From a virus, in IMG/VR virus record IMGVR_UViG_3300037466_003379, positions 32,001 to 96,000 of that record: 64,000 nt of DNA; one strand, given 5' to 3'. The first letter of the stretch is position 1. Each line of letters begins with the position of its first letter. The notes below the pieces were generated by a model. The model had not been told where the DNA came from. It worked only from the letters and a program-made list of their open reading frames with translations, and searched no databases. The position numbers and the translations under genes were made by a program. Below are positions 6,974 to 53,705 of the stretch, piece after piece.

Positions 6974-7333
6974 ATGCCCAGGCCCCTGCCGCTGCCGACG
7001 CACGAGCCCGACGCCGAGGCCCGCGAGATCATCGACCGCATCTACGCCTACGCCCGCGACACCGACGACGACACCACCAGCGAGGAACGACTCCAGCGCC
7101 TGGCCTCCGCCATGCACATCTGGATCGCCGCCGAGGCCAGCTGGGAGCACGTCCTCGTCGAAGCCAAGAGCCAGGCCAACCCCGGCTGGCTCTCCTGGGA
7201 CCGCCTGGTCGAGAAGACGAAGATGCGGCTCTCCACGATGCAGGACCGCATCGGCAAGGGCCCGGCCCGGTACCGCGCCACCCAGGTCCACCACGAGCTG
7301 CCCTCCCCCCGGCGTAGCCGCGAGGTCGCGTAG
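6974..7333 (+). CDS. Hypothetical protein, possible C-terminal HTH
   Basis: TTAGGAGG RBS before ATG 6974; SWDRLVEKTKMRLSTMQDRI is HTH-like. Confidence 0.65.
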   Translation: MPRPLPLPTHEPDAEAREIIDRIYAYARDTDDDTTSEERLQRLASAMHIWIAAEASWEHVLVEAKSQANPGWLSWDRLVEKTKMRLSTMQDRIGKGPARYRATQVHHELPSPRRSREVA

Positions 7334-7373
7334 CCCCTCCCCGCTCCGCTCCGGCGGTAGCGGTCTGACCTGC

Positions 7374-7638
7374 GTGTTGCACTGCAACATCGCGACATAG
7401 GAACACCCGCACACTGCGACGGCGTCACGGTGTGCGGGTGTTCTGCTGTTGCGGCGTTGCTCTGTCGCGTTGTGCCCCTGTCGCACCGCGACTCCGTTGC
7501 GGTGTTGCTGCGACACGCCGTTGCGCTGTGCGCCTGTCGCACCGTCACAGTGCTGCTACGTTGCCCAGCGACACTGCGACACCCGAACAGAGCAACGGTG
7601 TGCCACCCACACACCGTGTCGCTGTGCCACTGCAACAC
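7374..7638. repeat. Centromere-like (parS/parC) array of degenerate 8-bp units in alternating orientation
   Basis: Strict 8-bp phasing: CTGCAACA TCGCGACA TAGGAACA CCCGCACA CTGCGACG, then inverted TGTGCGGG TGTTCTGC TGTTGCGG CGTTGCTC TGTCGCGT; directly upstream of parA. Confidence 0.8.
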
Positions 7639-7674
7639 GACCCCAACGCGCCCGACCCGACCCCGAGGTGATCA

Positions 7675-8463
7675 GTGCCTGCCGAGACGATCTGCATGGC
7701 GAACTTCAAGGGCGGGGTCGCGAAGTCGACGACGTCCGTCAACGTGGCCGCCACGCTCGCCCAGCGCGGCCATCGGACGCTCCTGGTCGACTGCGACCCG
7801 CAGGCCAACTCCAGCGAGATGTTCCTCGACGAGGACGCCATCGAGATGGACCTCCGCTCGATCATCGTCGAGAAGGAGGAGACCGAGAAGGTCATCCAGC
7901 AGACGCGGATCGGGAACCTCGACGTCCTGCCGGCCAGCTTCGACCTGGCGTTCCTGGACAAGGAACTCGTCGTGTCGCCGAACGGCGTGCAGCGCATCGA
8001 CCGCGCGCTCCGGCCCGTCCGCGAGCTGTACGACTACATCGTGATCGACACCGGCCCGAACCTGTCGCACCTGACGCTGGGCGCGCTCGCCGCGTCCCAG
8101 CACGTCGTCATCCCGGTCTCCGCGACCGTGTGGGCGTCGAAGGGGCTGCTCAAGTTCGTCCGGTGGATCGACGGCAACCGCGACGAGGAGGTGCTCGCCG
8201 CCGAGCTTCTCGGCCTCGTCGCGACGATCGTGCAGCCGAGCACCCGGATCGGGCGCGCCCTGCTCGAGGACCTGCCGCAGTCGGGCATGCCGAGCTTCCG
8301 CACCTTCATCCCGCGGCGGATCAAGGCTGAGGACGCCGTTATGGACCGGCTCGTCGTGGGGGAGCCTGGCGTCGACATCAGCCTCACCACGGCCTATCAG
8401 GATCTGACGACCGAGCTGGTCGAGCGGATCGCGAAGGCGAAGGGGCCACGCCATGCCCGGTAA
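7675..8463 (+). CDS. parA: ParA-family partition ATPase
   Basis: Deviant Walker A KGGVAKST, LVDCDPQAN, Walker B YIVIDTGP; no N-terminal HTH (type Ib-like). Confidence 0.95.
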   Translation: MPAETICMANFKGGVAKSTTSVNVAATLAQRGHRTLLVDCDPQANSSEMFLDEDAIEMDLRSIIVEKEETEKVIQQTRIGNLDVLPASFDLAFLDKELVVSPNGVQRIDRALRPVRELYDYIVIDTGPNLSHLTLGALAASQHVVIPVSATVWASKGLLKFVRWIDGNRDEEVLAAELLGLVATIVQPSTRIGRALLEDLPQSGMPSFRTFIPRRIKAEDAVMDRLVVGEPGVDISLTTAYQDLTTELVERIAKAKGPRHAR

Positions 8464-8839
8464 GAGCCGCGGCTTCGGCGGGAACCTCCTCGGCGGGACC
8501 GTCAGGCCGATCCCTGACGACGACGAGCCGACGCCCGCGCCCACGACCACCCCGGAGCCCGCTCCGGCCCCGCCAGCGCAAGCTGAGGCGACGCAGCAGG
8601 CCGCCCCGGCGCCGCGGCCCCGAGCAGTCCCCGATCCGGAGCCGGAGCCGACCCCGGTCTCTGAGTCCAGCCGCGCTCGGAAAGGGCCGCCCGCGACCAT
8701 CCGCCTGAACGGCACGGCGGGGGAGGCTCTGTGGCAGGCGTACCTCGAAGCCAAGGCGCGCGACCACTTCCTCAGCTATCGGCAGTTCGCCTCCGACGTC
8801 GTCATGGACGGACTCATCCGCCAGAAGCGGCGCCGCTGA
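8453..8839 (+). CDS. Putative centromere-binding partner of ParA
   Basis: Overlaps the parA end; Pro-rich linker; short C-terminal strand-helix-helix (ATIRL...ALWQAYLEAK...SYRQFASDVV). Confidence 0.7.
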   Translation: MPGKSRGFGGNLLGGTVRPIPDDDEPTPAPTTTPEPAPAPPAQAEATQQAAPAPRPRAVPDPEPEPTPVSESSRARKGPPATIRLNGTAGEALWQAYLEAKARDHFLSYRQFASDVVMDGLIRQKRRR

Positions 8840-8853
8840 GCCTCTGACCAGCA

Positions 8854-8890
8854 TGTTGCACTGCAACACTGCAACACGGAGCGGTATAAT
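8854..8890 (+). promoter_or_regulatory. Second centromere-like repeat cluster abutting a TATAAT -10 box
   Basis: TGTTGCAC TGCAACAC TGCAACAC (8854-8877), then TATAAT at 8885-8890. Confidence 0.65.
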
Positions 8891-8896
8891 GGCCCA

Positions 8897-8993
8897 GCGT
8901 GACTAGCCCTAGCGCGGAACCCAGATCCGACCTTCTCGCGCAGTCACTCCAGGACCACTCGGCCCCGGCCTCTACGGAGGTCGGGGCCTTTTC
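8897..8993 (+). ncRNA. Candidate small structured RNA / attenuator leader
   Basis: Starts just after TATAAT; GTGACT/AGTCAC and GCGCGGAA/TTCTCGCGC pairings; ends in the hairpin GGCCCCGGCCTC-TACG-GAGGTCGGGGCC-TTTT. Confidence 0.4.
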
Positions 8994-9114
8994 GTTAGCG
9001 GCCGTAACCAACCGCCCACAGCGGACGATCAACTACCCGAACGCCGCCCGAGCCGTTGACACCCCCAGCGGCCCGAAGCGTGCTCCCCGGCACCTGAAAG
9101 TGAGTTACCCCCCG

Positions 9115-10659
9115 ATGGCTCACCCTGCTCTGCCCATGCCCGAACGCGCCGAATCCCCGTCCGGCCGCCACCACCGCCCCGAGATCTCCATCCCGGCCCA
9201 GCGCGCCGCGGCCGAGGACATCACCCAGGCGATCCCGAAGGTCCGCGCCGACTGGCGCGAGGCGCCCACTACGCGCTTCCCAGCCGTCCAGCGGCTGGTC
9301 GAGGTGACCCGCGCGCTGCCGCGCGTCCCTCGCGGCGTCGCGCTGCGCCGGCCGAACCTGGAGACCGAGGTGACGGTCAAGGCGAACCCGTGGCTCGTCG
9401 CCTTCCTGTTCGCCGTCGTCGGCGCCGCCGCAGCCGCATGGTTCTCGTGGCGCGGAGCCCCGTCCTGGTCGATCTACGGCATCGCCGTCTCGGTCCTCCT
9501 CGGCGCGAAGCTGCTGCTGTCGCTGCTCCCGCCGCCCCGCTGGGAGCCCGCCCCCGAGGGGAAGCGGGTCTGCGTCGTCGTCCCGATCTTCAACGAGGAC
9601 CCCGAGATCCTCGCCCGCTGCCTCGCCTCGATCGACGCCCAGACTTACCAGCCGACCCACGTCCGGATCATCGACGACGGCTCCTCCGCCCCCGAGGCCC
9701 ACAACTACGCGATCCAGTGGGCGATGGACCGCGCCAACGCCCGCGTGATCTTCCAGCACAACGCCGGCAAGCGTGAGGCGATGGGGCAGGCGTTCCGCGA
9801 GCTCGGCGAGCAGGTCGACCTGTTCGTGTGCGTCGACTCCGACACGGTCCTCGAGCCCGAGGCCATCCGCGAGGGCCTCGCCCCGTTCTCGGACCCGCGC
9901 ACCGCCGCCGTCACCGGCACCGTCGTCGCCCTCAACCAGGACCGCGGCCTGCTGCCCGGCCTGCTCGACCTGCGGTACGTCAACGCCTTCCTCTACGAGC
10001 GGGCCGCCTACAGCCGCCTCGGCTCCGTCCTCTGCGTGTGCGGCTCCCTGGCGATCTGGCGGGCGGACATCGTCCGCGCCCACCTCGACGACTTCCTCGG
10101 CCAGCAGTTCCTGGGGGAGCCCTGCTCGTACGGCGACGACCGGCACTTGACGAACCTGTCGCTACTGCACGGCCGCGTCGTCCTCGCGCACAAGGCGATC
10201 GCGCGCACCGCCGTGCCAGAGAAGGGCGGGCACCTGATCCGCCAGCAGGTCCGGTGGGGCCGCTCCTTCTTCCGCGAGTCCCTGTGGGCGCTGCGGAACC
10301 TGGGGCCGAAGCGCGCCGCCTGGTGGCTGTCCGCCCTGGAGTCCGTGTCCTGGGCCGGGTTCACCGTCGGCATGATGTTGTCCCTGTTCGTCCTGCCGGC
10401 GATCAGCGGGCAGGCTCACTGGCTGGACTACCTGGGCTGGGTGTTCCTCGCCGGGTACGGCCGCTCGGTGCACGTCTTCTCGGTGCGGCGCACCAGCTGG
10501 GCGCGCTGGCGGCAGGCCGCGATCTTCCTCCTCGCCCCGGCCTACGGGATGATCCACGTCCTCGTGCTGCTGCCGCTGCGGCTCTACTCCCTCGCCACGC
10601 TCCGCGCGACGAGCTGGGGCACCCGCTCCGGCGGCGTCGAGGTCGCCGAGACGGCCTGA
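9115..10659 (+). CDS. Processive GT2 glycosyltransferase, class I hyaluronan synthase/NodC-like
   Basis: PIFNED, IDDGS, NAGKR, VDSDT, CVCGSLAIWR, YGDDRHLTN, QQVRWGRSFFRE, terminal WGTR; 2 N-terminal and several C-terminal TM segments. Start uncertain (ORF open from 8899). Confidence 0.9.
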   Translation: MAHPALPMPERAESPSGRHHRPEISIPAQRAAAEDITQAIPKVRADWREAPTTRFPAVQRLVEVTRALPRVPRGVALRRPNLETEVTVKANPWLVAFLFAVVGAAAAAWFSWRGAPSWSIYGIAVSVLLGAKLLLSLLPPPRWEPAPEGKRVCVVVPIFNEDPEILARCLASIDAQTYQPTHVRIIDDGSSAPEAHNYAIQWAMDRANARVIFQHNAGKREAMGQAFRELGEQVDLFVCVDSDTVLEPEAIREGLAPFSDPRTAAVTGTVVALNQDRGLLPGLLDLRYVNAFLYERAAYSRLGSVLCVCGSLAIWRADIVRAHLDDFLGQQFLGEPCSYGDDRHLTNLSLLHGRVVLAHKAIARTAVPEKGGHLIRQQVRWGRSFFRESLWALRNLGPKRAAWWLSALESVSWAGFTVGMMLSLFVLPAISGQAHWLDYLGWVFLAGYGRSVHVFSVRRTSWARWRQAAIFLLAPAYGMIHVLVLLPLRLYSLATLRATSWGTRSGGVEVAETA

Positions 10660-10664
10660 GAACG

Positions 10665-10710
10665 ACGAAGAGGCCCCCGGCCGCCGTGTGGCGGCCGGGG
10701 GCCTCTTCGT
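10665..10710. terminator. Bidirectional intrinsic terminator between convergent genes
   Basis: Perfect 21-bp stem ACGAAGAGGCCCCCGGCCGCC / GGCGGCCGGGGGCCTCTTCGT. Confidence 0.85.
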
Positions 10711-11787
10711 TCAGCGCTCGTACTCGATGCCCAGGTGCAGGCCGCCCGGTGCCGCGTAGCGGGCCACGAGGAACGTGCACCAGCCCGGGAGCGGCTGCGC
10801 GGGCAGCGACAGGTTCCCGATCAGCGGAGCGTTCACCACCAGGTTCTTCACCTGCGGCGTCCGGTAGGTGATGTCGGTGAAGTAGAAGACCCGCAGGTAC
10901 TCCAGGAACCCGGACGGCTTGAGACGACCCGTCGAGTCCACGGCTTCCTGGCCACCGGCCCATCCGCACGTGATGCTCGAGACCGAGCCGTTCCCGCGCC
11001 AGCCTCCGCCGCCTGGCACCGCCGGGACGAGCGCGCTGTGGACCTCGCCGGAGCGCGGCCACTGGGCGGGGTCGAGGTCCTGCCACCGGCCACCGGCCGG
11101 GTCGGCCGGGTAGTCGGTGGCGGGGAAGCTGATGAGCGCCACGGCGTCCTCCGAGCTGCGGCCCGCCGGACCGGCGGGCGATGGTTGTGGGGGAGCGAAG
11201 GCCGGGTACTGGCCGTAGTTGTCGGCCCGGATCTGGTCGACGTCGCACTGGACGCCGCCCACGTTCGTTGTGCCGACCTGCTGGTAGAGCTGGGAGCGGT
11301 CGTCGATGTGCCCGTACTGCCATCCGGCGGCGGACCAGCCGAAGGTGGCGTAGCCGCGGTCCAGGGCGTCGGAGATGACGGAGCGGCCGCCGTAGACGCC
11401 GAGCTTCGCGACGCCGACGACGGAGCCACAGCCGTCCGCGTAGGCGCGGGCCAGCGGGAGATCCTTCGTGACGACGTCCTCGTCGAAGGCGAAGTACACG
11501 CAGCCGACCCGCCCCCAGTCGAGCCCGAGGTCGGCGAGGTGCGCCTTCACTGCCTGGGCGTCAGCGACCCCGCGAGCTCGGCCGCCGCGCCACGACCCGG
11601 TGGTGTCCTCGTAGACGAGGATCAGCTCCAGCCCGTTCGCGAGGTAGTCGGACACCTGCTCGGCGCTGGGCGCCTTCCGCCGGCCCGGGGTGCCCACGTA
11701 GAGCGCGATCGCCCGATAGCCCGCGGCGCGGACCTGGGCGCCGGTCGGATGGCCGACGCAGTCGATCGCGAGGCCGACGACGCTCAC
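10711..11787 (-). CDS. Endolysin, DUF1906 (GH25-like TIM barrel) with C-terminal domain
   Basis: GLELILVYE, RGVADA, VYFAFDED, LGVYGG, GGVQCDVD; last gene of the late operon near the holin. Confidence 0.8.
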   Translation of the reverse strand: MSVVGLAIDCVGHPTGAQVRAAGYRAIALYVGTPGRRKAPSAEQVSDYLANGLELILVYEDTTGSWRGGRARGVADAQAVKAHLADLGLDWGRVGCVYFAFDEDVVTKDLPLARAYADGCGSVVGVAKLGVYGGRSVISDALDRGYATFGWSAAGWQYGHIDDRSQLYQQVGTTNVGGVQCDVDQIRADNYGQYPAFAPPQPSPAGPAGRSSEDAVALISFPATDYPADPAGGRWQDLDPAQWPRSGEVHSALVPAVPGGGGWRGNGSVSSITCGWAGGQEAVDSTGRLKPSGFLEYLRVFYFTDITYRTPQVKNLVVNAPLIGNLSLPAQPLPGWCTFLVARYAAPGGLHLGIEYER

Positions 11788-12221: not shown

Positions 12222-12602
12222 CTACTCGGCGGCGGCCGCGGCGGAGAGCACCGCGATCTGGGCTGCCGTCTGCCCGGAGGCGGGAACGGCGGGGAACTCG
12301 ACGGTCGCCGGACCGGACGGCGCCGCAGGTACGTTGCCGACGGCGACGTCCGCGGGGGCGACCACGGTCGGTGCGACCGGGGCCGCTGGTGGGGCCTGGG
12401 CGCCGGCCAGCGCGGAGATCCGCACCCCGGCGACCTTGAGCAGGCACAGCAACGCGGCCGTGCCGCCCCCGGCGAGCGCGGCCCGCCAGTCGAACGTGTG
12501 CAGCTCGACCGCTGTCCCTCCGGCGGTGATTGCGCCGGCGAGGGACTGCACGAACGTCCAGCCGACGCGCTCGGCCAGGTCGATCCACGGCTTGGTGGTC
12601 AT
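12222..12602 (-). CDS. Holin (r1t-like)
   Basis: WIDLAERVGWTFVQSLAG...DWRAALAGG. Confidence 0.8.
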   Translation of the reverse strand: MTTKPWIDLAERVGWTFVQSLAGAITAGGTAVELHTFDWRAALAGGGTAALLCLLKVAGVRISALAGAQAPPAAPVAPTVVAPADVAVGNVPAAPSGPATVEFPAVPASGQTAAQIAVLSAAAAAE

Positions 12603-13983: not shown

Positions 13984-14562
13984 TCAGGAGTACGGGGCGT
14001 CCCAGGCGACGACCATCCAGGTCCCGCCGAGCGCGGTGTCCGACGACAGGGAGGCGCCGGTGTTCTGCAGCGCGCCGCCGCGGATCACGGTCCCGGCGGT
14101 GAACCGCTCGTAGAGGTGGGCCTCGACGTACACGTGCCCCGAGGCGGCCATGACCTCGTCGCCCATCGCGGCGATGTTCCCGGGGTTCGACGTGCCGTTG
14201 ACCATGATCGCGGCGCAGCGGATCCCGGAGGAGCCGGACACGAAGCCGACGTGCAAGCAGATCTCGTACCAGCCCGCCGTCTGGATCGTGACCGTCGTGC
14301 CGCCGGCGGTCGCCATGCTGTCGGTGTCGAGGACCTCGTTGTCCCACGTGATCGTGTTCGGGGTCGATGTGATCGAGCCCGTCGCGAAGTTGTGCGCGTT
14401 GCTGGTCAGGTAGCACATCGGCTTCGTGGACGCCCCCGAGGCGAGGGTGCGGCCCAGCGTGTTCTGCGCCAGCGTGTCGACGTTCGTGCGCAGGTTCGAC
14501 AGGTCCGTCGCGGTGACGAGGACGCCGTCGGTGAAGGTCGGGGGAGCGGACAGCGCCGACAT
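13984..14562 (-). CDS. Tail-tip/receptor-binding-like protein, paralog 3
   Basis: PTFTDG...DLSNLRTNVDTLAQ...TKP...IQTAGWY...GTWM..WDAPY. Confidence 0.8.
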   Translation of the reverse strand: MSALSAPPTFTDGVLVTATDLSNLRTNVDTLAQNTLGRTLASGASTKPMCYLTSNAHNFATGSITSTPNTITWDNEVLDTDSMATAGGTTVTIQTAGWYEICLHVGFVSGSSGIRCAAIMVNGTSNPGNIAAMGDEVMAASGHVYVEAHLYERFTAGTVIRGGALQNTGASLSSDTALGGTWMVVAWDAPYS

Positions 14563-14575
14563 CGGGGCTCCTCGG

Positions 14576-15166
14576 TCAGTAGGGGGCGTGCCAGGCGCAC
14601 GTCCACCACGTGCCCCAGGAGCCGACGGAGTTGTTCGTGGTGAGGTTCAGCGACGCCCCGGAGTTCTGAAAGACGCCGACGTAGAGCGACGCCCCGGCCT
14701 GCAGGTGCTCGTAGGCCACGACCTGGTGGTGGTAGGCGCTGGTGGAGCCCAGGTTCTGCGTCGTCGTCGCGACGACGTTCAGCGGGTCCGCGATGCCGTT
14801 GATGAGGATCTGCACGACCCGCTCGGACGCGGCCGCGGACGCCCACCACGCCTGGGCCATGATCCGGTACCAGCCAGGCGTCTGGATCACCATGTGATCG
14901 GCGGGGGAGCCCGGCCACATGCCGTCGTTGTCGAAGACGACGTTATTCCAGGTGACGATCTGGTTCGTGCCGCCCGCCCCGGTCGGGACGGAGAAGTTGC
15001 TGGTCAGGTTGACCTTGCAGATCGGCTTCGTGGAGTAGCCCGCCGAGGCGGGCTTGCCCAGCAGGTTCTGCGACAGCGCGTCGAGGTTGAAGGACAGCCG
15101 GTTCAAGTCGGCCTGTCCGACGAGCGTGCCGTCGACGAACGTCGGGTTGGCGATGGTGGCGGGCAC
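14576..15166 (-). CDS. Tail-tip/receptor-binding-like protein, paralog 2
   Basis: PTFVDG...DLNRLSFNLDALSQ...TKP...IQTPGWY...WGTWW..WHAPY. Confidence 0.8.
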   Translation of the reverse strand: MPATIANPTFVDGTLVGQADLNRLSFNLDALSQNLLGKPASAGYSTKPICKVNLTSNFSVPTGAGGTNQIVTWNNVVFDNDGMWPGSPADHMVIQTPGWYRIMAQAWWASAAASERVVQILINGIADPLNVVATTTQNLGSTSAYHHQVVAYEHLQAGASLYVGVFQNSGASLNLTTNNSVGSWGTWWTCAWHAPY

Positions 15167-15184
15167 GCCGGCCTCCGCTCTCGA

Positions 15185-15793
15185 TCAGTAGGGGGCTTCG
15201 TAGGTGACCGACATCCATGTCCCCCACGCGGAGGAGGAGGCGGCCGCGGTCGCCTGGGGGAGCAGGTTCAGCGCAGCGCCCGATGCCTGGTAGGTGCGGC
15301 CGAGGATGTTCGTGTTGAAGGCGGCGTGCACCCACGCCGAGACCTGCAGCCGCTGGTTGTTGTTGATCCGCATCAGGGTGTTGTGGGTGGCGACGACGTT
15401 GGCGTTCGCGGTGCCGTTGACGCAGATCGAGATGGCGCGCTCGGACGGGGCGAGAGCGCCCGGGTCCGACTGGAAGTCGTATGCCACCTGGAGCTCGACG
15501 CGGTACCAGCCGGGGGTGAGGATCAGGAACGTCGTCCCGACGTTGATCGAGAAGTGGTGGTCGGAGTCCACCTCTTCGAGGTCCCAGTTGATCACCGTGT
15601 CTGTGGCGTTCAAGATCGACTGAGTGTTCAGGAGCCGCGCCTTCGTCGCGGGCCTCTGGGTCGCCCCATCGGACAGCGGGTGCGCCGTCCCGAGCTGGGC
15701 GATCGTGTCGAGGTTCGTCGCGATCGTCTGCAGGTTCGCCGCCGTGGGCACCGTGCCGTTTGTGAAGCTCGGGATGCTGCTCAGCGACGGCAC
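15185..15793 (-). CDS. Tail-tip/receptor-binding-like protein, paralog 1
   Basis: PSFTNG...NLQTIATNLDTIAQ...QRP...ILTPGWY...WGTWM..YEAPY. Confidence 0.8.
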   Translation of the reverse strand: MPSLSSIPSFTNGTVPTAANLQTIATNLDTIAQLGTAHPLSDGATQRPATKARLLNTQSILNATDTVINWDLEEVDSDHHFSINVGTTFLILTPGWYRVELQVAYDFQSDPGALAPSERAISICVNGTANANVVATHNTLMRINNNQRLQVSAWVHAAFNTNILGRTYQASGAALNLLPQATAAASSSAWGTWMSVTYEAPY

Positions 15794-19651: not shown

Positions 19652-21163
19652 TCACTGCACCGTGAGGGTCAGGTCGTCCGAGCCGGCGCCCGTGGCGGTG
19701 TACCGGAGGACGAAGGTGCCGATCTGGGAGTCCGAGGGCGGGCTGGGCCGGGTCGACATCGTGTAGCTGTCGCCGTAGACCGACCAGGAGAACGGGGTCA
19801 GCAGGCTGAACTTCCCGGCGCTGATCAGGCTCCTGTAGATGGTCGAGCGCCCGTCGCTCTGGTAGTCGCCCCAGGACTGCAGGACGGCGTCGCGGAGATC
19901 GCAGATCTTCGTGAGGTAGGCGCTCTCGGTGCCACCGGCGGATGGCGGCTTCGACGTGCTGGCGCGGGCGGCTGCGATGATGCCGCCGTAGCTCTCGGAG
20001 TCGGTACCGGGGCCGTGATTAACCAAAACGTCGTAATGCAATGCGAGGCCGAGTGGGCTAACCCCGTCCTGCAGCGCGTTCTTGAGCGCGTCGTCCCAGT
20101 AGATGCTCTTCCGCAGCTCTCGCTGCGCCTGCCGGAACAGCGGGTCGGTATTCGCCGCGCTCGCCCAGGCCGTCTGAAAGGCCGTGCCGAGGTTGGACGC
20201 AGCAGCGCTGGAGGCGCCCGAGCCGTAGCCGACGTTCGCGCAGTTCTGCAGGCCCGTGAGGTACGACGACAGCGGGTTGCTCGTCGGCTTGAGCTGCACA
20301 TACCGCTGCACCAGCTGCAGCATGTCCCCGGTCGCACTGGTGAAGCCGATCAGCCCGCCGGTATAGCCGCGCTGGTCCCCGATGTCCTGAATGTAGTTGT
20401 AGGTCGTCGTCCAGTCCTTCGTGGAGTTCTCCGCGGTCTGGACGATCTCGAAACACATCTCCTGAATAACCGGCTGTCGCAGGTCCGTGGTCCCGGACGG
20501 GGACGACCCGATCGGCCACGACAGCGCCGCCGCCGTCCCGATCGTCGTGCCCTCCCCGAGCGGCCCGGACACGATCGTCCAGGCGCGGCTGGTGATCGTG
20601 ACGCCGGTCGGCTCCGTCGCGGTCCGCGTGAACGTCGACCCGGGAGCGGCAGTCGCGTCCGCGCCAGCGAACAGCGCCCCGGAGGAGGTGGAGCCGCCAC
20701 CCGCCGCGTTGCTGGTGATCGTGACGTCGGTCAGCACCCACGCCCCGGCGAGCGCGCTGTACTCGGCGGAGGCGAGGAGCACCTGGTTCTGCGGCACCGA
20801 GTAGGTCAGGGTCGTGACGCGCGTCGACAGCAGGAAGCCCGACGCGAACGTGCACGTCCGGGCGGCCCCGGACGCCAGCGCGAGCACCTCGTAAAGCTCG
20901 CCATCGGTGACCGCACCCACCGGGACGGGGATCGTCGTGTCGGCGGTCATCGTGAAGTCGGAGATCATGGCATCGTTCGTGCCGGTGTTCCCGGCCCCAC
21001 CGGTGCCGCCGCCCAGACCCTCAAGGGAACTGACCCGGCCCTCGACGGCGTCCAGCCGGAGCGACGCCTCCTTGATCCCGGCCTCCTGGTGGTTCAGGCG
21101 GCCGGCGCTGAGCGGGGTCCCTCCGTTGGGCCCGTCGACCCACGTCTGCTGGTCGTAGGACAT
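19652..21163 (-). CDS. Tail fibre-like protein carrying a GH46 chitosanase domain inserted in a PKD-like module
   Basis: EIVQTAENSTKDW..TYNYIQDIGDQRGYTGGLIGFTSATGDMLQLVQRY matches the GH46 signature; fibre-type N-terminus QQTWVDGPNGGTPLSAGRLN; no signal peptide. Confidence 0.88.
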   Translation of the reverse strand: MSYDQQTWVDGPNGGTPLSAGRLNHQEAGIKEASLRLDAVEGRVSSLEGLGGGTGGAGNTGTNDAMISDFTMTADTTIPVPVGAVTDGELYEVLALASGAARTCTFASGFLLSTRVTTLTYSVPQNQVLLASAEYSALAGAWVLTDVTITSNAAGGGSTSSGALFAGADATAAPGSTFTRTATEPTGVTITSRAWTIVSGPLGEGTTIGTAAALSWPIGSSPSGTTDLRQPVIQEMCFEIVQTAENSTKDWTTTYNYIQDIGDQRGYTGGLIGFTSATGDMLQLVQRYVQLKPTSNPLSSYLTGLQNCANVGYGSGASSAAASNLGTAFQTAWASAANTDPLFRQAQRELRKSIYWDDALKNALQDGVSPLGLALHYDVLVNHGPGTDSESYGGIIAAARASTSKPPSAGGTESAYLTKICDLRDAVLQSWGDYQSDGRSTIYRSLISAGKFSLLTPFSWSVYGDSYTMSTRPSPPSDSQIGTFVLRYTATGAGSDDLTLTVQ

Positions 21164-22878: not shown

Positions 22879-25800
22879 TCAGCCGAGGCCGAATCCGGTG
22901 TAGTTGGTGCCGTTCTGCGTGTTCCGGATGCCGTGCCGCACCAGCTCCTGCTGCAGCTCGGTGACCAGGTCCTTTGTGGTCCACACGTTCCCCTGGACAG
23001 TGGGGTTGAGGTGGACGACGGTCACGTTCGTTGCGCCCTGGGAGAGGCCAGGCAGGACCGCCGGGGAGGCGGCCTGGAGGGCGCCGGGTCGGACCGTGAC
23101 CGGCATGGCCGCCCCGTCGGTACCGAGCGCGGCGGCCGTCTGGCCGAGGGCCTGGAGGTTCCGGTTCGTGCTCTGCGTCGCCGACACGACCCGATCGGCT
23201 ACCGACTGGGCGGCGGTGACCGCCAGGTCGGCATGGTCGTCGATGCCGTTCGCGAGGCCCTTCATCAGCCACATGCCGGACTCGTGGGCAATGGTGGACG
23301 GGGAGGCGATGCCGAGCGCGGACTTCACGCCACCCCAGAGCGATGACGCCCAGCCGGTGAGCTTGTCCCACACCCACGACGTCATCGAGGTGATGCCGTT
23401 CCACAGGCCGACGAGCAGGTCGTGACCGGCGGAGACGAGCCAGTTCGCGGCCCCGGAGAACAGGTTGATCACGGTCTGCGGCAGCCCGGATGCCCAGCCC
23501 CAGAACGAGTTCCACATATTCTTGAGCCCATTCCAGAGGCCCTCGATTATGTAGCCACCGATTTCCGAGAAGACGGTCGAGGGCGACTGGATGCCGAAGC
23601 CGCTCTTGAATCCGTCGATGAATCCCTTAATGAAATCGGTGATCCCGTTCCAGATATTCGACACCCAATCCGTGAAGCCTTTCCACAGACCGGTGAGAAT
23701 ATTCTTTCCGTGCTCGTAGAGCCACTGCGGCGCCTCGGTGAAAAACGCCTTGATCTTGCCTGGCAGGTCCTTGAACCACTGGACCGTGACCTCCCACTCC
23801 AGCTTGAGGCCGGTAGTGAAGTTGTCCCAGAGTTCCTTCGCCTTGTCGACCAGCCAATTCTTCGCGTCAACGAAGAAATCCTTGATCTTGCCGGGCAGCG
23901 CCTTGAACCAGGCGACCGTTTCATTCCAGGCGTTTGTGACCCCGGTCGTGAAGCCGTGCCACAGCTCCTTCGCCTTATCGGCGATCCAGTTCCCCGCGCC
24001 GACGAAGAAATCCTTGATCCGGCCCGGCAGCGCCTTGAACCAGGCGACCGTTTCATTCCAGGCGTTTGTGACCCCGGTCGTGAAGCCGTGCCACATTTCC
24101 TTGGCCTTGTCGACCAGGGTGCGGGCCAGCTCGCCGAGCTTCTCGCCGATGATGTGGCCCCACTCGCCGGGGCTCTTCGACATGATCGTCTTGACCAGCT
24201 CCGCGCCCTTGCGGAACGGCGTCGTTAGCCAGTCCCACACGTTCGCGAGGGCCCGCTGGATCATCCCGCCGAGGCTCGACAGGCCCTGCCCGATCTTCTC
24301 CGGGATCGACTTGACAAACCCGACCAGGTCACTGATCCGGTCCCCGCACCAGTTGACCGCGGTCGTGAAGGCGCTCTTGACCTTGTCCCAGAGCCCGGAG
24401 AAGAAGTCGGCGACGCCCTGCCAGTGCTGGATCAGCTCGTAGATCCCGAAGGCCAGCAGCGCGACCGCGGCGATGATCGCCAGGATCGGCCAGGTCGCCG
24501 CGATCACCCCGATGGCAGCCTGCGCGGCCGCGATGCCGAGGGCGACGAACGCGGCCACCAGGACCACGCCGATGATCCCGGCGACGATGATCGCGACCGT
24601 CTGGTGCTCGGTCATCCACTTCGTCGCGTCGGCGAAGACGCCGACGATCTTCGACGCGACCGGGAGGAGCTTCTCGCCGATCGAGATCGCCAGCGCCCCG
24701 AGGCCGTCCTTTGCCTGCGAGAGCTTCGTGTTGAACTCCGACTGGATCTCGGCCCAGCCCTTGACGTGGCCGCCGGCCTCGGACGTCGCGCCGGAGATGT
24801 TCTTGATCGCGTCGTTGGTGTAGTCGGCGTTCTCGCCGGTCGTCATCAGCGCGACCTTGAGCCCGGTGGCGTCGCCCATGGCCTTCTGCATGGCCTGGCC
24901 GTAGGTCTGCATGACCTGCTCGCCGGACATGTGGGCCTGGCCGAGCTGGTGGGTCTGCCCGGCCAGCGTCGCGAACGACGTCGCCTGCTTCGCGGAGATC
25001 GGGTCGAGTTCCTTGGCCTGCTTCGTGAACGCGGCCATCGAGATCGACCCGTCCATCACCTTCTGCGCGAGGCCCTGGACGGCGGGTGTGCTCTGCGAGA
25101 CGGCGTTCTTGAGGTCGAGGAAGACCTTCTCCGAGCCGGGCGGCATCGACTTCGAGATCGCCTGCTGCAGCATCTGCATCGTGCCGGCGAGACCGCGCTC
25201 GCCGAGCTTCGCCGCCACGTCGGAGGCGTCGATGCCGAGCGTGGCCATCTCCTGCCGCATCCCGGCCGTGGGCGACTGGAGGTGGCGGATGGCGTCCGCC
25301 ATGTTCTGCGTGGCCTGCTGGGCGGAGATGCCGTGGCTGGTCATCGACGCCAACGTGCCGAGCATGTCGTCGAGGGAGATGTGCGCGGCGGAGGCGAGCG
25401 GGGCGACCGAGCTGAGCGACCCGGACAGCTCCTCGAACGTCATCTTGCCGCTGGCGGTGGCCTGCACCATCTTCGACGTCACCGTCGCGGCGTCGTCCGC
25501 CTTGAGGTGGTAGTCGATCAGCGCAGTGGTGACCGCGTCGGCGACGGTGGTGAGGTCCGCGTTCTCCGTCTTCGCGCCCTCGGCCGCCGCCTTGAGCACC
25601 TTGAGGCCGTCCGCGCCGTGCTGGCCGCCGGACTCCACCTTGTACATGGCGGTGGCCAGTTCGTCGGCGCTGTAGCCGACCTGGCCCGCCATCTCGAGCA
25701 TCCCCTGGCGGACCATGTCCAGGTTCTGCCGCGACTCGTTCGCCGAGGTGACGAGCCGCATCGTGGCCTGGTCGTAGTCGCCGGCCATCTTCACGGCGAT

Positions 25801-43043: not shown

Positions 43044-43603
43044 TTCTTCCCGCCCGGCTTCTTTCCGTCCTCCGCCGGGTACCAGGCGGGGGAGTAGGCC
43101 CAGTCCTTGATCCCCTTCGCGGCGAACACGCCGTCCTGGGCGAGCAGGTTGACCTCGTCGAGCGTCGCGCCGATCTCCTTCGCGATCTGCTGCGGATCGA
43201 GGTGATGCTCTTCGACCAGCTCGCGGACGATCGCCGACATGTGCACCGCGACGTGCGAGCCCTTGGCCCGGTTGATCCGGATGGTCATCAGCATCGCGGC
43301 GGGCCGGTCGAGGTTGAGCACCGCGACCGGGACGTGGCCGTCCCAGCGGTCCCGGATGGCCCGGGAGTCCTGGGCGAGGCGCCACCGGTGGAACCCGTCG
43401 ATGACGAGGCCCTCCGGGTTGGCCAGGATCGGCTGCAGCCAGCCCGTCGACAGCACCGAGTGCTCGAGGAGCCGCAGCTCGGCCTTGTGGACCCTGTTCG
43501 GGTTCCACCCGTTCGCCTCCAGCGTGGTCGCGGGGACCCACTGGACGTGATCGATCGGGTCCTTCCCCTCCGGAGTCGGCGTCAGCGTCGCCACCGTCGT
43601 CAC
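43040..43603 (-). CDS. IbrB-like ParB/sulfiredoxin-domain protein
   Basis: ANGWNPN, GWLQPI, VIDGFHR, TIRINRAKGSH. Confidence 0.85.
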   Translation of the reverse strand: MTTVATLTPTPEGKDPIDHVQWVPATTLEANGWNPNRVHKAELRLLEHSVLSTGWLQPILANPEGLVIDGFHRWRLAQDSRAIRDRWDGHVPVAVLNLDRPAAMLMTIRINRAKGSHVAVHMSAIVRELVEEHHLDPQQIAKEIGATLDEVNLLAQDGVFAAKGIKDWAYSPAWYPAEDGKKPGGKK

Positions 43604-44712
43604 ACCTTCCCGGCCGCGCGCATGCGGTCGATCTCGTCCTTCATCGCCTTCGTGCGCTTCGACGCCGGGTAGGCCGTCAGCCGGCGCTTGTAGGCGCCGC
43701 CGATGAACTCGCGGAGCACGAACTCCACGGGGTAGCCGTACGGGTCGACCTTCGCCCGCTGCCGCACGTCCGCGAGCCGCGTGGTGGCCAGCTCGTGCTG
43801 CTTCGGGTCGGTCAGGGTGTCGTCGATCCAGCGCTGCACGCCGTCGAACCCGTCCTGCGTGTACTGGCGGCGCTGGCCCTTCACGTCGAGCTCGGACCAG
43901 TACCGCTCCTGCACCAGCATCTCGGGGAACAGGTCCATGACCTGGTCGTAGAAGACGGGGCTGGTCTCGCGGAGCTTCCCGATCTGCTTCGCGTTCTCCG
44001 CGTGCACCGGCGTCGACACCCGCAGCGCCTGCCCGGCCCACAGCTGGGCGTCGTAGTGCGGGCAGTAGCGGATCCCCCGGTCGTAGAAGTACCGGAAGAT
44101 GTCGTTCTCCTGCCAGTCGAAGATCGGCTTGGCGAGGCTGGCCTTCTTCGTCTTCGTGGCGTTGATGTAGTTCTCGTTCAGCTTCACCGTGCTGGCCTGC
44201 CAACGCACGATCGACTCGGCGGCCCGGATGCCGTTGAGGATCGCGACGCGGCCCTTGAACACGGACGCGGTGACCTCGTCCATGTCGTATTGCGACAGCA
44301 CCGTCGACTCGGGGAGCCCGAGGTCGGCGAGGGTGATGGCGTGCTCAGGCTTCGGCCTGATCCACTCCCGGGCCGGGTCCCACTGCAGGTAGTGGTAGGT
44401 CTTCCCGAGGATGAACTTGTTCGACGCCAGCGGGACCGCGAACCACCGCATTCGGACCCAGTCGAGCTGCCGGTACTCGTCGACGAAGTCGAGCACCGCG
44501 TCGGGGATCAGCTCCTCGTCGCGGAAGATGACGTTGACGTGGCCGATGCCCAGCTCGTCCGACACCTCCTTCACGAGGTGCAGGACGGCCAGGGAGTCCT
44601 TCCCACCGGAGAAGGCGACGACGACCTGGTCAAACAGGTCGTAGATGTGCCGGATGCGGTTCTTCGCCTCCTCCAGCACGTTCGTGTCGATGAACCGCTT
44701 GACCCGGGTCAT
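43600..44712 (-). CDS. IbrA-like PAPS-reductase-family (PP-loop) protein
   Basis: VAFSGGKDS, GIRAAES, KPIFDWQENDIF, LRVSTP. Confidence 0.88.
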   Translation of the reverse strand: MTRVKRFIDTNVLEEAKNRIRHIYDLFDQVVVAFSGGKDSLAVLHLVKEVSDELGIGHVNVIFRDEELIPDAVLDFVDEYRQLDWVRMRWFAVPLASNKFILGKTYHYLQWDPAREWIRPKPEHAITLADLGLPESTVLSQYDMDEVTASVFKGRVAILNGIRAAESIVRWQASTVKLNENYINATKTKKASLAKPIFDWQENDIFRYFYDRGIRYCPHYDAQLWAGQALRVSTPVHAENAKQIGKLRETSPVFYDQVMDLFPEMLVQERYWSELDVKGQRRQYTQDGFDGVQRWIDDTLTDPKQHELATTRLADVRQRAKVDPYGYPVEFVLREFIGGAYKRRLTAYPASKRTKAMKDEIDRMRAAGKV

Positions 44713-45350
44713 CCGAGGTCCAGCCCGCCGAGGTAGGCGTGGATGCGCTCGCCGATGGTCTCCAGGTCCGGGTACTGCCGCCGCAGCCAGCGCATCCACT
44801 CGTAGAAGCGGCTCTGCTGCACCTCGTTGTCGAACACGAGGTTGTAGGCGACCACGGCCTCACCGAGGCCCTTCGACCCGCCGCCCTCGTCGTCGTCCTC
44901 GTCGTCCTCGTCATCCCCCGGGAACGACGGCGGCTCGATGAGTTTCTGCACGTCATCATCGGTGTAGCCGAGGCCGTCGTAGTCGCCCTCGAAGTAGGAG
45001 AGCAGCTGCACGAGGTCGTCGGCGTCGTCGTACCCCAGGCTCGCCTGCCGGTTGTCCGCGACCACGATCCGCCGGGCGAGGTCGTCGTCCATGCGGTGCA
45101 CCTCGCAGCGGACGTTCTTGAAGCCCTCCGCCTTGAGGCCCTGGAAGGTGTGGTTCCCGGCCAGGATCCGGAAGCCCTCGGGGCCCCGGTCCTGGACGAT
45201 CAGGGCCCGGTACTGGCCGTGCCGGCGCAGCGACTTCCGGAGCTCGGCGACGTTCCCGCGCCGGGCGTTCCCCGGGTACTCGTGCAGCTCGCCGAGCGGA
45301 ATGCTCCGCGTCTCGACGAACGTGTCCAGCTCCTCCGTGTTGCTCGCCAC
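44709..45350 (-). CDS. ParB N-terminal-domain protein
   Basis: YPGNARRG, GQYRALIV, ILAGNHT, ADNR. Confidence 0.85.
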   Translation of the reverse strand: MASNTEELDTFVETRSIPLGELHEYPGNARRGNVAELRKSLRRHGQYRALIVQDRGPEGFRILAGNHTFQGLKAEGFKNVRCEVHRMDDDLARRIVVADNRQASLGYDDADDLVQLLSYFEGDYDGLGYTDDDVQKLIEPPSFPGDDEDDEDDDEGGGSKGLGEAVVAYNLVFDNEVQQSRFYEWMRWLRRQYPDLETIGERIHAYLGGLDLG

Positions 45351-45459
45351 GGGGGTCACCTCCTCAGCGGGAGGTCGCACCCCCGCGGTCCAAGTCGTTG
45401 ATCGCTGCGCGGGGGCCGCGCGAGGGTGTCCAGAGATCAGAGCCGCAGGCCGTCGGCCT

Positions 45460-52405: not shown

Positions 52406-52638
52406 CGCTCCATCCTCACCCAGTGCGAGAGCATCGGGCCTGGCACGGAGGCGTGGACGACCGGGATCCCGTACAGCGCGGCGCACCCCGGGAGCACGTC
52501 GTCCGGCAGAACCCACGTCACGTCATCGAGGAGCGCCTGCTCTCGCAGCCTCTGGATCGTGGAGATGCCCGCGACGAGCAGCGCCCGGGCCTGGTCCTCC
52601 TGAGCCGTGACTAGCCTCATGACCTCGTCGCTGATCAC
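52402..52638 (-). CDS. Hypothetical protein
   Basis: Coupled to the recombinase stop. Confidence 0.5.
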   Translation of the reverse strand: MISDEVMRLVTAQEDQARALLVAGISTIQRLREQALLDDVTWVLPDDVLPGCAALYGIPVVHASVPGPMLSHWVRMER

Positions 52639-53705
52639 AGGACACCTCGCATGGCGTTGTCGCGCCACGGATCTGCGGCTCTGGCGTACTTGACGACCAT
52701 CGTGCTGTTCTCCGACCAGCGGGCGTGCCGGGCGACGACACCTGCCGGGACGCCCTTCCGGAGCGCCGCGGTGGCCGCTCCGGAGCGGAGGCTGTGTGCG
52801 CTGTAGAGCTCGGCGTCGGGCAGGCGTGCGGCCTTGGCGGCGGCCTTCACGACCCGGTCGACCGCCTCGCCCGCGATGCTCATCCGGCGCGGGGTGCCCC
52901 ACTTCGTGACCGGCCGGAACAGCGGCGTCTCGGGGTCGAGCAGGCCCGGGGTTATGACAACCTCAGCGAGCTTCGCCCTGTAGACGCGGTGGGTCCGGAC
53001 GGGGCAGACGGAGACGTGCGAGCCTGGCGGGACCGCCACCACGGTGCCTTCGGAGTCCTTGTCGGTCTTCGACGTCCGGATGGTGACGAGCAGGCCCTGC
53101 GGGTCCTCCACGACGTCGGCCAGGCGCAGCGCGGCCAGCTCGGAGCGGCGCACCATCATCCCGTAGCCGAGGGTCAGGATCAGCTGGTCCCGCAGGCCGA
53201 CGTACGTCGTCGGGTCGAGGGTCTCGACCATGCGCTCGATGTCCTCGGGGGAGAGGGGTCGAGCTTCCTTCGTCCGGCGGCCTTCGGTCGCCCGCTTCCG
53301 CTTGTACCCCCGGAGGAGCTGGAGCGCGCCCTCGGTGTCGGGCTGCCCCTTGAAGCCGGCGACCGCGTGCAGCTTCCGGAGCGCGCCGATCGTGGTCGAG
53401 ATCCGCGAGGGAGCGGCGTCGATCTCGATGAGGTGGGCGACGAACTCGGTCAGGGTGGCGTCGGTGGCCGGGATGGCGGTCCGGCGGTGCAGCCGACACC
53501 ACTCCTCGAACTCTCGTCCGATTCGCTCGTATGTCCGCCGGGTGTTCTCCGGTACCGATTCCGCCAGCAGTGTGCGGGTCGTGTCGCTGATCCGCCAATC
53601 CGCATCGGTGTACGGAGTGACTGATCTGTTGAGGTTCGGGTGCTCTGGCGCGGGAAGGACCACTAGGTCCGTTCCGGGGGTTTTCGCCGGGTGATCTTGA
53701 GTCAC
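52635..53705 (-). CDS. Tyrosine recombinase, Cre-like (resolvase rather than classic integrase)
   Basis: PENTRRTY, RRSEL, SKTD, HSLRSG, HARWS...KY (Trp in place of the second His, as in Cre); no arm-binding domain evident. Confidence 0.9.
   Translation of the reverse strand: MTQDHPAKTPGTDLVVLPAPEHPNLNRSVTPYTDADWRISDTTRTLLAESVPENTRRTYERIGREFEEWCRLHRRTAIPATDATLTEFVAHLIEIDAAPSRISTTIGALRKLHAVAGFKGQPDTEGALQLLRGYKRKRATEGRRTKEARPLSPEDIERMVETLDPTTYVGLRDQLILTLGYGMMVRRSELAALRLADVVEDPQGLLVTIRTSKTDKDSEGTVVAVPPGSHVSVCPVRTHRVYRAKLAEVVITPGLLDPETPLFRPVTKWGTPRRMSIAGEAVDRVVKAAAKAARLPDAELYSAHSLRSGAATAALRKGVPAGVVARHARWSENSTMVVKYARAADPWRDNAMRGVL

Follow-up and report, generated by a model that had tools for sequence, protein, structure and literature searches.

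A hyaluronan synthase-type glycosyltransferase gene as probable accessory cargo of a temperate actinophage

A 64,000-nucleotide stretch of viral DNA (hereafter the window; bases 32001-96000 of the 104,105-bp IMG/VR virus record IMGVR_UViG_3300037466_003379) was analyzed around a glycosyltransferase gene that faces the lysis genes of a phage. Judged from sequence comparisons and a predicted structure, this gene (9115-10659, plus strand) very probably encodes a functional processive synthase of the class I hyaluronan synthase (HAS) family and serves a temperate actinophage as accessory cargo. An earlier note on this DNA had described it as a stand-alone, HAS/NodC-type moron. Positions below are those of the window unless stated otherwise, and L numbers denote the loci used for comparison.

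The synthase gene and the element that carries it

The gene product, P0001, has the following layout.

9115-10659, plus strand: class I HAS-like processive family 2 glycosyltransferase (GT2) synthase P0001, 514 amino acids (aa), from translation, Pfam, NCBIfam, structure and alignments
P0001 residues 1-85: disordered, Pro/Arg-rich N terminus (AlphaFold2 model)
P0001 residues 92-137: two transmembrane helices
P0001 residues 150-365: GT-A domain
P0001 residues 371-395: interface helix with QQVRW
P0001 residues 401-494: C-terminal membrane helices
P0001 residues 501-504: WGTR gating motif

The frame translates without a stop to 514 aa and contains IIDDGSS, NAGKREA, VDSDTV, YGDDRHLTN, RQQVRWGRS and SWGTRSGG. 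The motifs that the earlier note had read as intact (DDGS, GKR, DSDT, GDDRHLTN, QQVRW and WGTR) are thus all there, and the catalytic positions are invariant throughout 112 homologs. The longest frame opens at GTG 8899 (586 aa). This start was rejected because the frame traverses a terminator-like hairpin at 8961-8988, which makes ATG 9115 the more plausible start codon. The purine-rich sequence GAAAGTGAG lies at 9097-9105, 9 nucleotides (nt) ahead of this ATG, and the public gene call begins 7 codons later, at ATG 9136 (P0002, 507 aa). Close homologs have an N-terminal extension like that of P0001. Pairwise ratios of nonsynonymous to synonymous substitution rates (dN/dS) against six relatives range from 0.38 to 0.53, with dS compressed by extreme GC content at third codon positions.

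The surroundings of the gene comprise partition genes on one side and late phage genes on the other.

7675-8463, plus strand: ParA-type partition ATPase, upstream and co-oriented (AAA_31, E = 1e-45; also CbiA, MipZ and ParA)
8453-8839, plus strand: small parA-partner gene overlapping the parA stop, without family match
8843-8877, plus strand, also 7375-7390 and 7623-7638 upstream of parA: parS-like palindromic boxes, GTTGCACTGCAAC
8961-8988, plus strand: strong hairpin (-32 kcal/mol, z = -4.0), then the T-run TTTTCGTT
9057-9105, plus strand: candidate expression signals read by eye, TTGACA at 9057-9062 (without a convincing -10 element) and GAAAGTGAG at 9097-9105
10665-10710, both strands: perfect inverted repeat of 21 bp, situated where the GT2 and endolysin genes converge
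10711-11787, minus strand: endolysin with an Rv2525c-like glycoside hydrolase domain, convergent with the GT2 gene
12222-12602, minus strand: holin
52635-53705: tyrosine recombinase

The synthase gene is bounded by hairpins. The downstream one lies between the stop codons of the GT2 gene (10659) and the endolysin gene (10711). Because it folds strongly on both strands (-54.1 and -54.8 kcal/mol; z = -8.2 and -9.7), it reads as a shared, bidirectional terminator-like hairpin. The terminator ascribed to the gene is therefore present, shared with the endolysin side, and the convergence with the lysis cassette is as described. The upstream hairpin, equaled in folding by 0 of 200 shuffled sequences, is a probable terminator of the operon of parA and its partner (or an attenuator), which would shield the GT2 gene from upstream transcription. 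Such hairpins are not general among the relatives, a clear downstream one being found only in the viral contig L088. The leader gave only a chance-level match to a known RNA or riboswitch (isrL; Rfam, E = 0.58). A perfect TATAAT (8885-8890) stands just past the parS-like boxes, with the strong hairpin and T-run about 70 nt farther on, and the interval 8885-8998 could be a small RNA of about 100 nt or an attenuating leader of the synthase gene.

The product of the small gene at 8453-8839 is presumed to be a centromere-binding protein. The GTTGCACTGCAAC boxes lie within a 34-nt unit repeated on either side of parA and its partner (7364-7397, 7623-7638 and 8843-8877), the 8-mer TGCAACAC occurs 5 times against 0.62 expected, and the repeats likely form a centromere or operator. 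A DUF6879 gene and an XRE/DUF5753 regulator are further co-oriented genes upstream. The convergent late operon runs through endolysin, holin, three paralogous virion proteins, tail genes (with a tape measure of 1224 aa), major capsid protein, portal and terminase. The three tandem paralogs, of about 195 aa each (13984-15793, minus strand), match the C-terminal part of phrog_13989, a virion structural protein, and have an unusually low GC content at first codon positions.

The IMG/VR record is classed as linear, with a CheckV completeness estimate of 88%, and GC content is about 71% all along the window. More than 40 kb of phage-type DNA flanks the synthase gene on either side within the same record, which bears out the earlier view that the gene is phage-borne. 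Elsewhere in the record, beyond the window, are genes for DpdA, a UvrD-type helicase, a dCTP deaminase and an FtsK-like protein; neither tRNA nor housekeeping genes were found in the record. Because of the recombinase, the late operon and the phage-type content without tRNA or housekeeping genes, the synthase gene is placed internally in a temperate phage or phage-plasmid. The portal protein is at most 24% identical to that of any GenBank phage, and no near-identical DNA occurs among GenBank phages or PLSDB plasmids. The best explanation of the element is a temperate siphovirus-like phage or phage-plasmid of roughly 104 to 118 kb with a high-GC actinobacterial host. The DpdA homolog (E = 5e-74; L006:6849-7862, record positions 23849-24862) belongs to 7-deazaguanine DNA modification, and a PAPS reductase-like gene is paired with a ParB-N gene at 43600-45380 (minus strand). 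Together, the two loci indicate that the phage DNA is probably modified.

Enzyme class and ancestry

P0001 matches the Pfam GT2 families Glyco_tranf_2_3 (E = 5e-22) and Glycos_transf_2 (E = 1e-19). Its top NCBIfam model is NodC (TIGR04242; 205.2 bits, E = 1.5e-60), and the PgaC/IcaA model scores 57 bits. The NodC match speaks for a chitin or chito-oligosaccharide synthase (NodC- or chitin synthase-like), which would make a beta-1,4-linked N-acetylglucosamine (GlcNAc) homopolymer from UDP-GlcNAc alone, perhaps deacetylated by the host to a chitosan-like coat. The score is, however, far under the 550-bit equivalog cutoff of that model. Among solved structures, Xenopus HAS1 (E = 4e-37) and Chlorella virus HAS (E = 1e-31) are closest in sequence, and no other does better than 1e-5. 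A tblastn search of plasmids ranked Bacillus HasA (35.5% identity, E = 2e-44) slightly ahead of NodC (about 35%, E = 2e-35).

An AlphaFold2 model built from the 112 homologs is confident (mean predicted local distance difference test score 86.6; predicted template modeling [TM] score 0.84) and shows the predicted fold of a class I HAS, namely, an N-terminal transmembrane pair, interface helices and a C-terminal transmembrane bundle. In a Foldseek search with this model, the best 13 matches are all HAS (E = 1e-23 to 1e-18; TM-score 0.5 to 0.65), and cellulose synthase BcsA and chitin synthases trail at about 1e-13.

To separate HAS from NodC, P0001 was aligned with Bacillus HasA, two chlorovirus HAS and three rhizobial NodC sequences. 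Columns that are uniform within either set, HAS or NodC, but differ between the two number 29; at these, P0001 is HAS-like in 17, NodC-like in 5 and neither in 7. P0001 and the HAS set have GDDR and WGTR, in contrast to GEDR and WLSR in the three NodC sequences. The label "HAS/NodC-type" given to the motifs by the earlier note thus fails for GDDRxLTN and WGTR, which in these NodC sequences read GEDRHLT(I) and WLSR. In Xenopus HAS1, residues Y288, F292, C307, W382, S385, D342 and R343 cradle the acceptor GlcNAc, and arginines R287 and R296 lie beside the following glucuronic acid (GlcA-2) (PMC11750622). P0001 has all nine (Y288, F292, C307, W381, S384, D342, R343, R287 and R296), the near-identical numbering being coincidental, and each of them is either invariant in the 112 homologs or conserved to at least 90%. 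Position 287 is Arg in P0001 and Glu in NodC. The pairs GDDR/GEDR, WGTR/WLSR and Arg/Glu at position 287 provide a practical rule for sorting HAS from NodC.

Among characterized systems, bacterial HasA (Streptococcus; Bacillus plasmids of the pXO1/pBCXO1 type) is similar in core size (426 aa for Bacillus HasA and about 423 aa here). In both, a pair of N-terminal transmembrane helices precedes the GT-A domain, and the C-terminal membrane helices end at WGTR; GDDR, the QQxRW..SFFRES motif, R287 and R296 are also common to both. P0001 differs in its extra 85-aa disordered N terminus, in an identity of only about 35%, in the absence of hasB and hasC from its element and in its carrier, which is a phage instead of a virulence plasmid or chromosome. 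Chlorovirus HAS (PBCV-1 A98R; structures 7SP6-7SPA) is likewise a virus-encoded class I enzyme and has all its catalytic, acceptor-collar and gating residues in common with P0001 (TM-score about 0.6, E = 1e-22). However, the two proteins are about 29% identical, the one from chloroviruses has further C-terminal transmembrane helices past WGTR, and chloroviruses are lytic with eukaryotic hosts. The analogy drawn earlier with chloroviruses is therefore a loose one: it holds for a virus-encoded HAS, yet the chlorovirus-type contig L123 carries a sugar-nucleotide dehydrogenase near its synthase and this phage has none. Rhizobial NodC is similar in length and has DxD, GKR and QQxRW in common with P0001, but it is always accompanied by nodA, nodB and nodIJ, which are absent here.

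In phylogenies, P0001 falls in a large Actinomycetota clade of the class I HAS/NodC superfamily, apart from NodC and from giant-virus HAS. The comparison with HasA and NodC, which had been proposed as a check, gave in IQ-TREE (LG+C20 with posterior mean site frequencies) Bacillus HasA as sister to the entire actinobacterial clade (Shimodaira-Hasegawa-like approximate likelihood ratio test 99). This kinship is favored but not secure, and two further tree results are weighed below. The subgroup of P0001 is well supported, with identities of 65 to 76%; it contains Modestobacter and Blastococcus genomes and many metagenome proteins, several of which bear the JGI label "hyaluronan synthase." Taken together, residues, fold, tree and the dehydrogenase neighbors described below favor a HAS-type over a NodC-type assignment for P0001.

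Mobility and genomic neighbors of related synthases

Close relatives (65 to 76% identity) were located in two chromosomes, in one plasmid/transposon setting and in four phage settings that differ from one another. The 16-kb viral contig L088 has eight proteins in common with this phage, in collinear order, and a 70%-identical synthase that lies between integrase and ParB/terminase genes instead of at the far end of the late operon. In the 58-kb viral contig L089, the synthase gene belongs to an array of early genes, with a serine integrase 7 kb away, and in L144, it is found among polymerase-exonuclease, ParB, Mom-like and single-stranded DNA-binding protein genes. A Pseudonocardia metagenome-assembled genome contig (L010:3-9637) has a 64%-identical synthase between a Tn3-family transposase and a TrwC relaxase, and this adjacency suggests that the gene also travels on conjugative elements. 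In L009, the synthase gene stands amid ordinary chromosomal genes. The neighbors in eight viral and metagenome loci match 123 PHROG families, among which are those of integrases, methyltransferases, endolysins and an anti-repressor. A close homolog is present in only 2 of 151 sampled Geodermatophilaceae genomes. This rarity, with the variety of phage, plasmid and chromosomal contexts, argues for mobile accessory cargo. A scan of viral contigs with the single protein had found no relatives; an alignment-based scan found them.

The picture that these comparisons suggest is of a mobile single-gene accessory unit (moron) repeatedly acquired by phages. Hairpins on both sides, an orientation opposite to the late genes and the different site of its ortholog in the collinear L088 agree with the earlier description as a stand-alone moron, as do the unrelated contexts of its relatives. 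It is very improbable that the gene is a decaying one or hitchhiking cargo without benefit to phage or host. Although dN/dS values of 0.4 to 0.5 are just moderately low, the intact frame, the invariant catalytic residues, the confident structural model and the recurrence in several unrelated phage contexts speak for a maintained function. Morons of the GtrABC serotype-conversion type are likewise surface-glycan accessory genes of temperate phages, and P0001 weakly matches the GtrB-like phrog_841 (E = 6e-4). However, Gtr enzymes decorate an existing polymer via a lipid carrier, whereas P0001 would make and export a whole polymer by itself.

Among 50,697 GenBank phage records, the sole actinobacterial-type relative, and the only one from a cultured actinophage, is gp79 of Streptomyces phage Kromp (annotated "glycosyltransferase"; L001:7743-9254; 35% identity, E = 1e-43), which belongs to the same broad actinobacterial clade. 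It has SDD in place of GDD, MYMRW in place of QQxRW and Trp at position 287; because of these diverged motifs, it probably has a different, non-HAS activity.

The genes beside related synthases offer clues to the product. Neighbor clustering covered the genome and viral loci with a callable synthase gene and was complemented by targeted tblastn. In 14 of 80 genome loci, the synthase has, within a few kilobases, a UDP-glucose dehydrogenase gene whose product is 36 to 41% identical to the enzyme of the Bacillus has operon. This distribution needs at least five changes on the tree, corresponding to at least five sub-lineages. The same gene adjoins the synthase in three metagenome contigs (L146, L148 and L149), in the first of which it comes immediately after, and in the same orientation as, a 71%-identical synthase. 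The pairing, reminiscent of hasA-hasB, recurs on Lactococcus and Enterococcus plasmids and in L123. On the Lactococcus plasmid pUCCL637C (L137:1105-3522), a nucleotide-sugar dehydrogenase and a HAS-like GT2 lie beside IS30 and IS6. This GT2 is 36% identical to P0001, has GDDRHLTN and WGTR, and is found as the same protein on Enterococcus faecium plasmids, so that the two-gene unit of dairy and gut plasmids looks like a mobile hasB-hasA pair. Overall, the dehydrogenase neighbors suggest a broad link of the synthase clade to UDP-GlcA. The linkage tells against a chitin-type enzyme, as do the want of any NodB-like deacetylase or NodIJ-type exporter beside the actinobacterial synthases or on the phage and the absence of a carbohydrate esterase family 4 (CE4) deacetylase domain from the whole 104-kb record.

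Other neighbors point in another direction. A CBM3-domain protein of about 500 aa is encoded directly downstream in 24 Streptomyces-type genome loci (e.g., L066:11528-13078) and three metagenome contigs. Four loci (L074, L076, L077 and L087) combine a downstream CBM3 gene with an upstream UDP-glucose dehydrogenase gene, and this dehydrogenase-synthase-CBM3 set is a candidate three-gene exopolysaccharide locus. A GGDEF-EAL gene (L008:145-2478, minus strand) lies divergently upstream of the 69%-identical Blastococcus atacamensis synthase, which suggests cyclic di-GMP (c-di-GMP) control of this chromosomal copy. A PMT_2-like GT-C and a GH26-like hydrolase occur in some lineages; neither they nor the CBM3 protein recall any has operon. 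These associations bear on a further possibility, in which the HAS residues reflect ancestry and the product is another acidic or mixed beta-glycan, either of glucose and GlcA, like the pneumococcal type 3 capsule, or a novel actinobacterial exopolysaccharide. The PMT_2-like, GH26-like and CBM3 neighbors would suit it, as would the c-di-GMP link, which recalls c-di-GMP-controlled exopolysaccharides. The clade is also separate from all characterized enzymes in the trees, and the dehydrogenase linkage speaks for UDP-GlcA only and not for the second sugar. Nonetheless, all seven GlcNAc-acceptor residues of Xenopus HAS1 are kept, which points to GlcNAc as a constituent, and we regard a mixed glycan of this kind as rather unlikely.

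Product, expression and consequences for the carrier

The interpretation that best accounts for these observations is a HAS-type cargo gene with a hyaluronan-like product acting in lysogenic conversion, to which, as a whole, we assign a probability of roughly 0.5. The intact, self-sufficient membrane GT2 would transfer sugars from host UDP-sugars alternately or repeatedly and extrude the polymer, as it grows, by way of its own transmembrane channel. The likely product would be hyaluronan or a close GlcNAc/GlcA polymer, formed from host UDP-GlcNAc and UDP-GlcA. With the gene expressed from the resident prophage or plasmid, the carrier cell would bear the polymer on its surface in the form of a capsule or slime. 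Being polyanionic, such a coat could mask receptors, or it could help the cell to withstand desiccation and to adhere. The Blastococcus and Modestobacter genomes with close homologs encode one dehydrogenase-family gene each, which makes a host supply of UDP-GlcA plausible. Where the earlier note had left the product open, residues, phylogeny and neighborhoods now lean toward a HAS-type enzyme using UDP-GlcA, short of proof, and the presence of GlcA in the product (as hyaluronan or similar) is slightly favored on these grounds.

Several results weigh against this interpretation. P0001 is at most about 36% identical to any characterized enzyme. Chlorella virus HAS reads the UDP-GlcA carboxylate via K177 and R341 (PMC12987647). 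These residues were rejected as markers of donor specificity: they are common to HAS and NodC-type enzymes and thus give no residue test of the donor sugar. FastTree, in disagreement with IQ-TREE, groups HasA with NodC and giant-virus sequences, and an approximately unbiased (AU) test of the topology with NodC as sister and HasA excluded (log-likelihood difference 23.9, p = 0.067) leaves this tree just short of rejection. As the earlier note had observed for the window, the phage encodes no partner enzyme: targeted tblastn and a further search found no UDP-glucose dehydrogenase in the entire 104-kb record. CBM3 domains bind cellulose or chitin, and such a neighbor is no less compatible with an insoluble beta-1,4 polymer than with hyaluronan. 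The tail chitosanase described below suggests that host surfaces carry a glucosamine (GlcN)-rich polymer. With regard to the host, the major capsid protein had no matches in the 151 Geodermatophilaceae genomes. Finally, the promoter that the earlier note had assigned to the gene was not borne out: a sigma-70 consensus scan of 7300-11000 found none, leaving the lone TTGACA without a good -10 element, and the phage's own repeated promoter box is absent upstream of the synthase gene.

The tail protein in question (19652-21163, minus strand) has a GH46 domain at residues 222-470 (E = 9e-54; about 1e-53 to the chitosanases 4OLT and 1CHK) behind a fiber-like N terminus (phrog_2012/5711, residues 1-38). 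GH46 tail proteins of 59 to 65% identity occur in 30 Streptomyces phages. A lock-and-key pairing of this enzyme with the synthase was considered and found unsupported. Kromp, the only Streptomyces phage matching the synthase, is absent among the matches listed (25 of 30), and the two genes therefore do not appear to form a coupled system.

By its hint at a GlcN-rich host polymer, the tail chitosanase keeps a chitin-like product in contention, together with the NodC model match, the phage's lack of a dehydrogenase, the CBM3 proteins conserved beside the Streptomyces relatives and the survival of the NodC-sister tree in the AU test. Moreover, class I HAS enzymes given UDP-GlcNAc alone can make chitin oligomers. 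Against this stand the low model score, the GDDR, WGTR and R287 signature with 17 HAS-like versus 5 NodC-like columns, the recurrent dehydrogenase linkage, the want of deacetylase and exporter genes and the uncoupled chitosanase. On balance, we consider a chitin-type synthase unlikely.

With respect to timing, expression in the lysogen is suggested because the gene is insulated by hairpins, adjoins partition genes and lies opposite the late genes; judged from this arrangement, the odds that the enzyme acts in the lysogen are about even, which itself tempers the interpretation. The same enzyme might instead be active in lytic growth, for instance, blocking further adsorption or aggregating cells. 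In chlorovirus infection, hyaluronan fibers appear on infected cells early. The synthase genes of L089 and L144 lie inside early/replication arrays, co-oriented with neighbors whose starts and stops overlap, Kromp gp79 is found among early-type small genes, and no lysogeny-type promoter was identified at the synthase gene. Conversely, the hairpins, the late operon on the opposite strand and the neighboring genes for partition and an XRE-type regulator, which a resident element has to keep active, make a lytic role doubtful, if credible.

Virus-borne HAS and phage glycan-conversion morons are both already known kinds. Of note here are the actinobacterial synthase clade and its recurrent carriage by phages. 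Carrying the lysogenic-conversion interpretation further, we tentatively suggest, at somewhat less than even odds, that a one-gene module for a hyaluronan capsule spreads with temperate actinophages and phage-plasmids. This would be the first bacteriophage HAS, and the clade of several hundred members would contain the first hyaluronan producers of the Actinomycetota. Lysogens would gain a polyanionic coat that alters phage adsorption and desiccation tolerance or adhesion in soil and rock-surface bacteria.

If the product is chitin-like, the gene would still be a rare phage-borne processive exopolysaccharide synthase. If it is hyaluronan-like, hyaluronan makers would extend to a large actinobacterial clade, which would matter for glycobiology and for hyaluronan production in high-GC hosts of the generally-recognized-as-safe type. 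Bacteriophages, beyond the giant algal viruses, would then carry complete single-gene polymer synthases, and soil actinobacteria would offer a simple, testable case of capsule gain by lysogeny.

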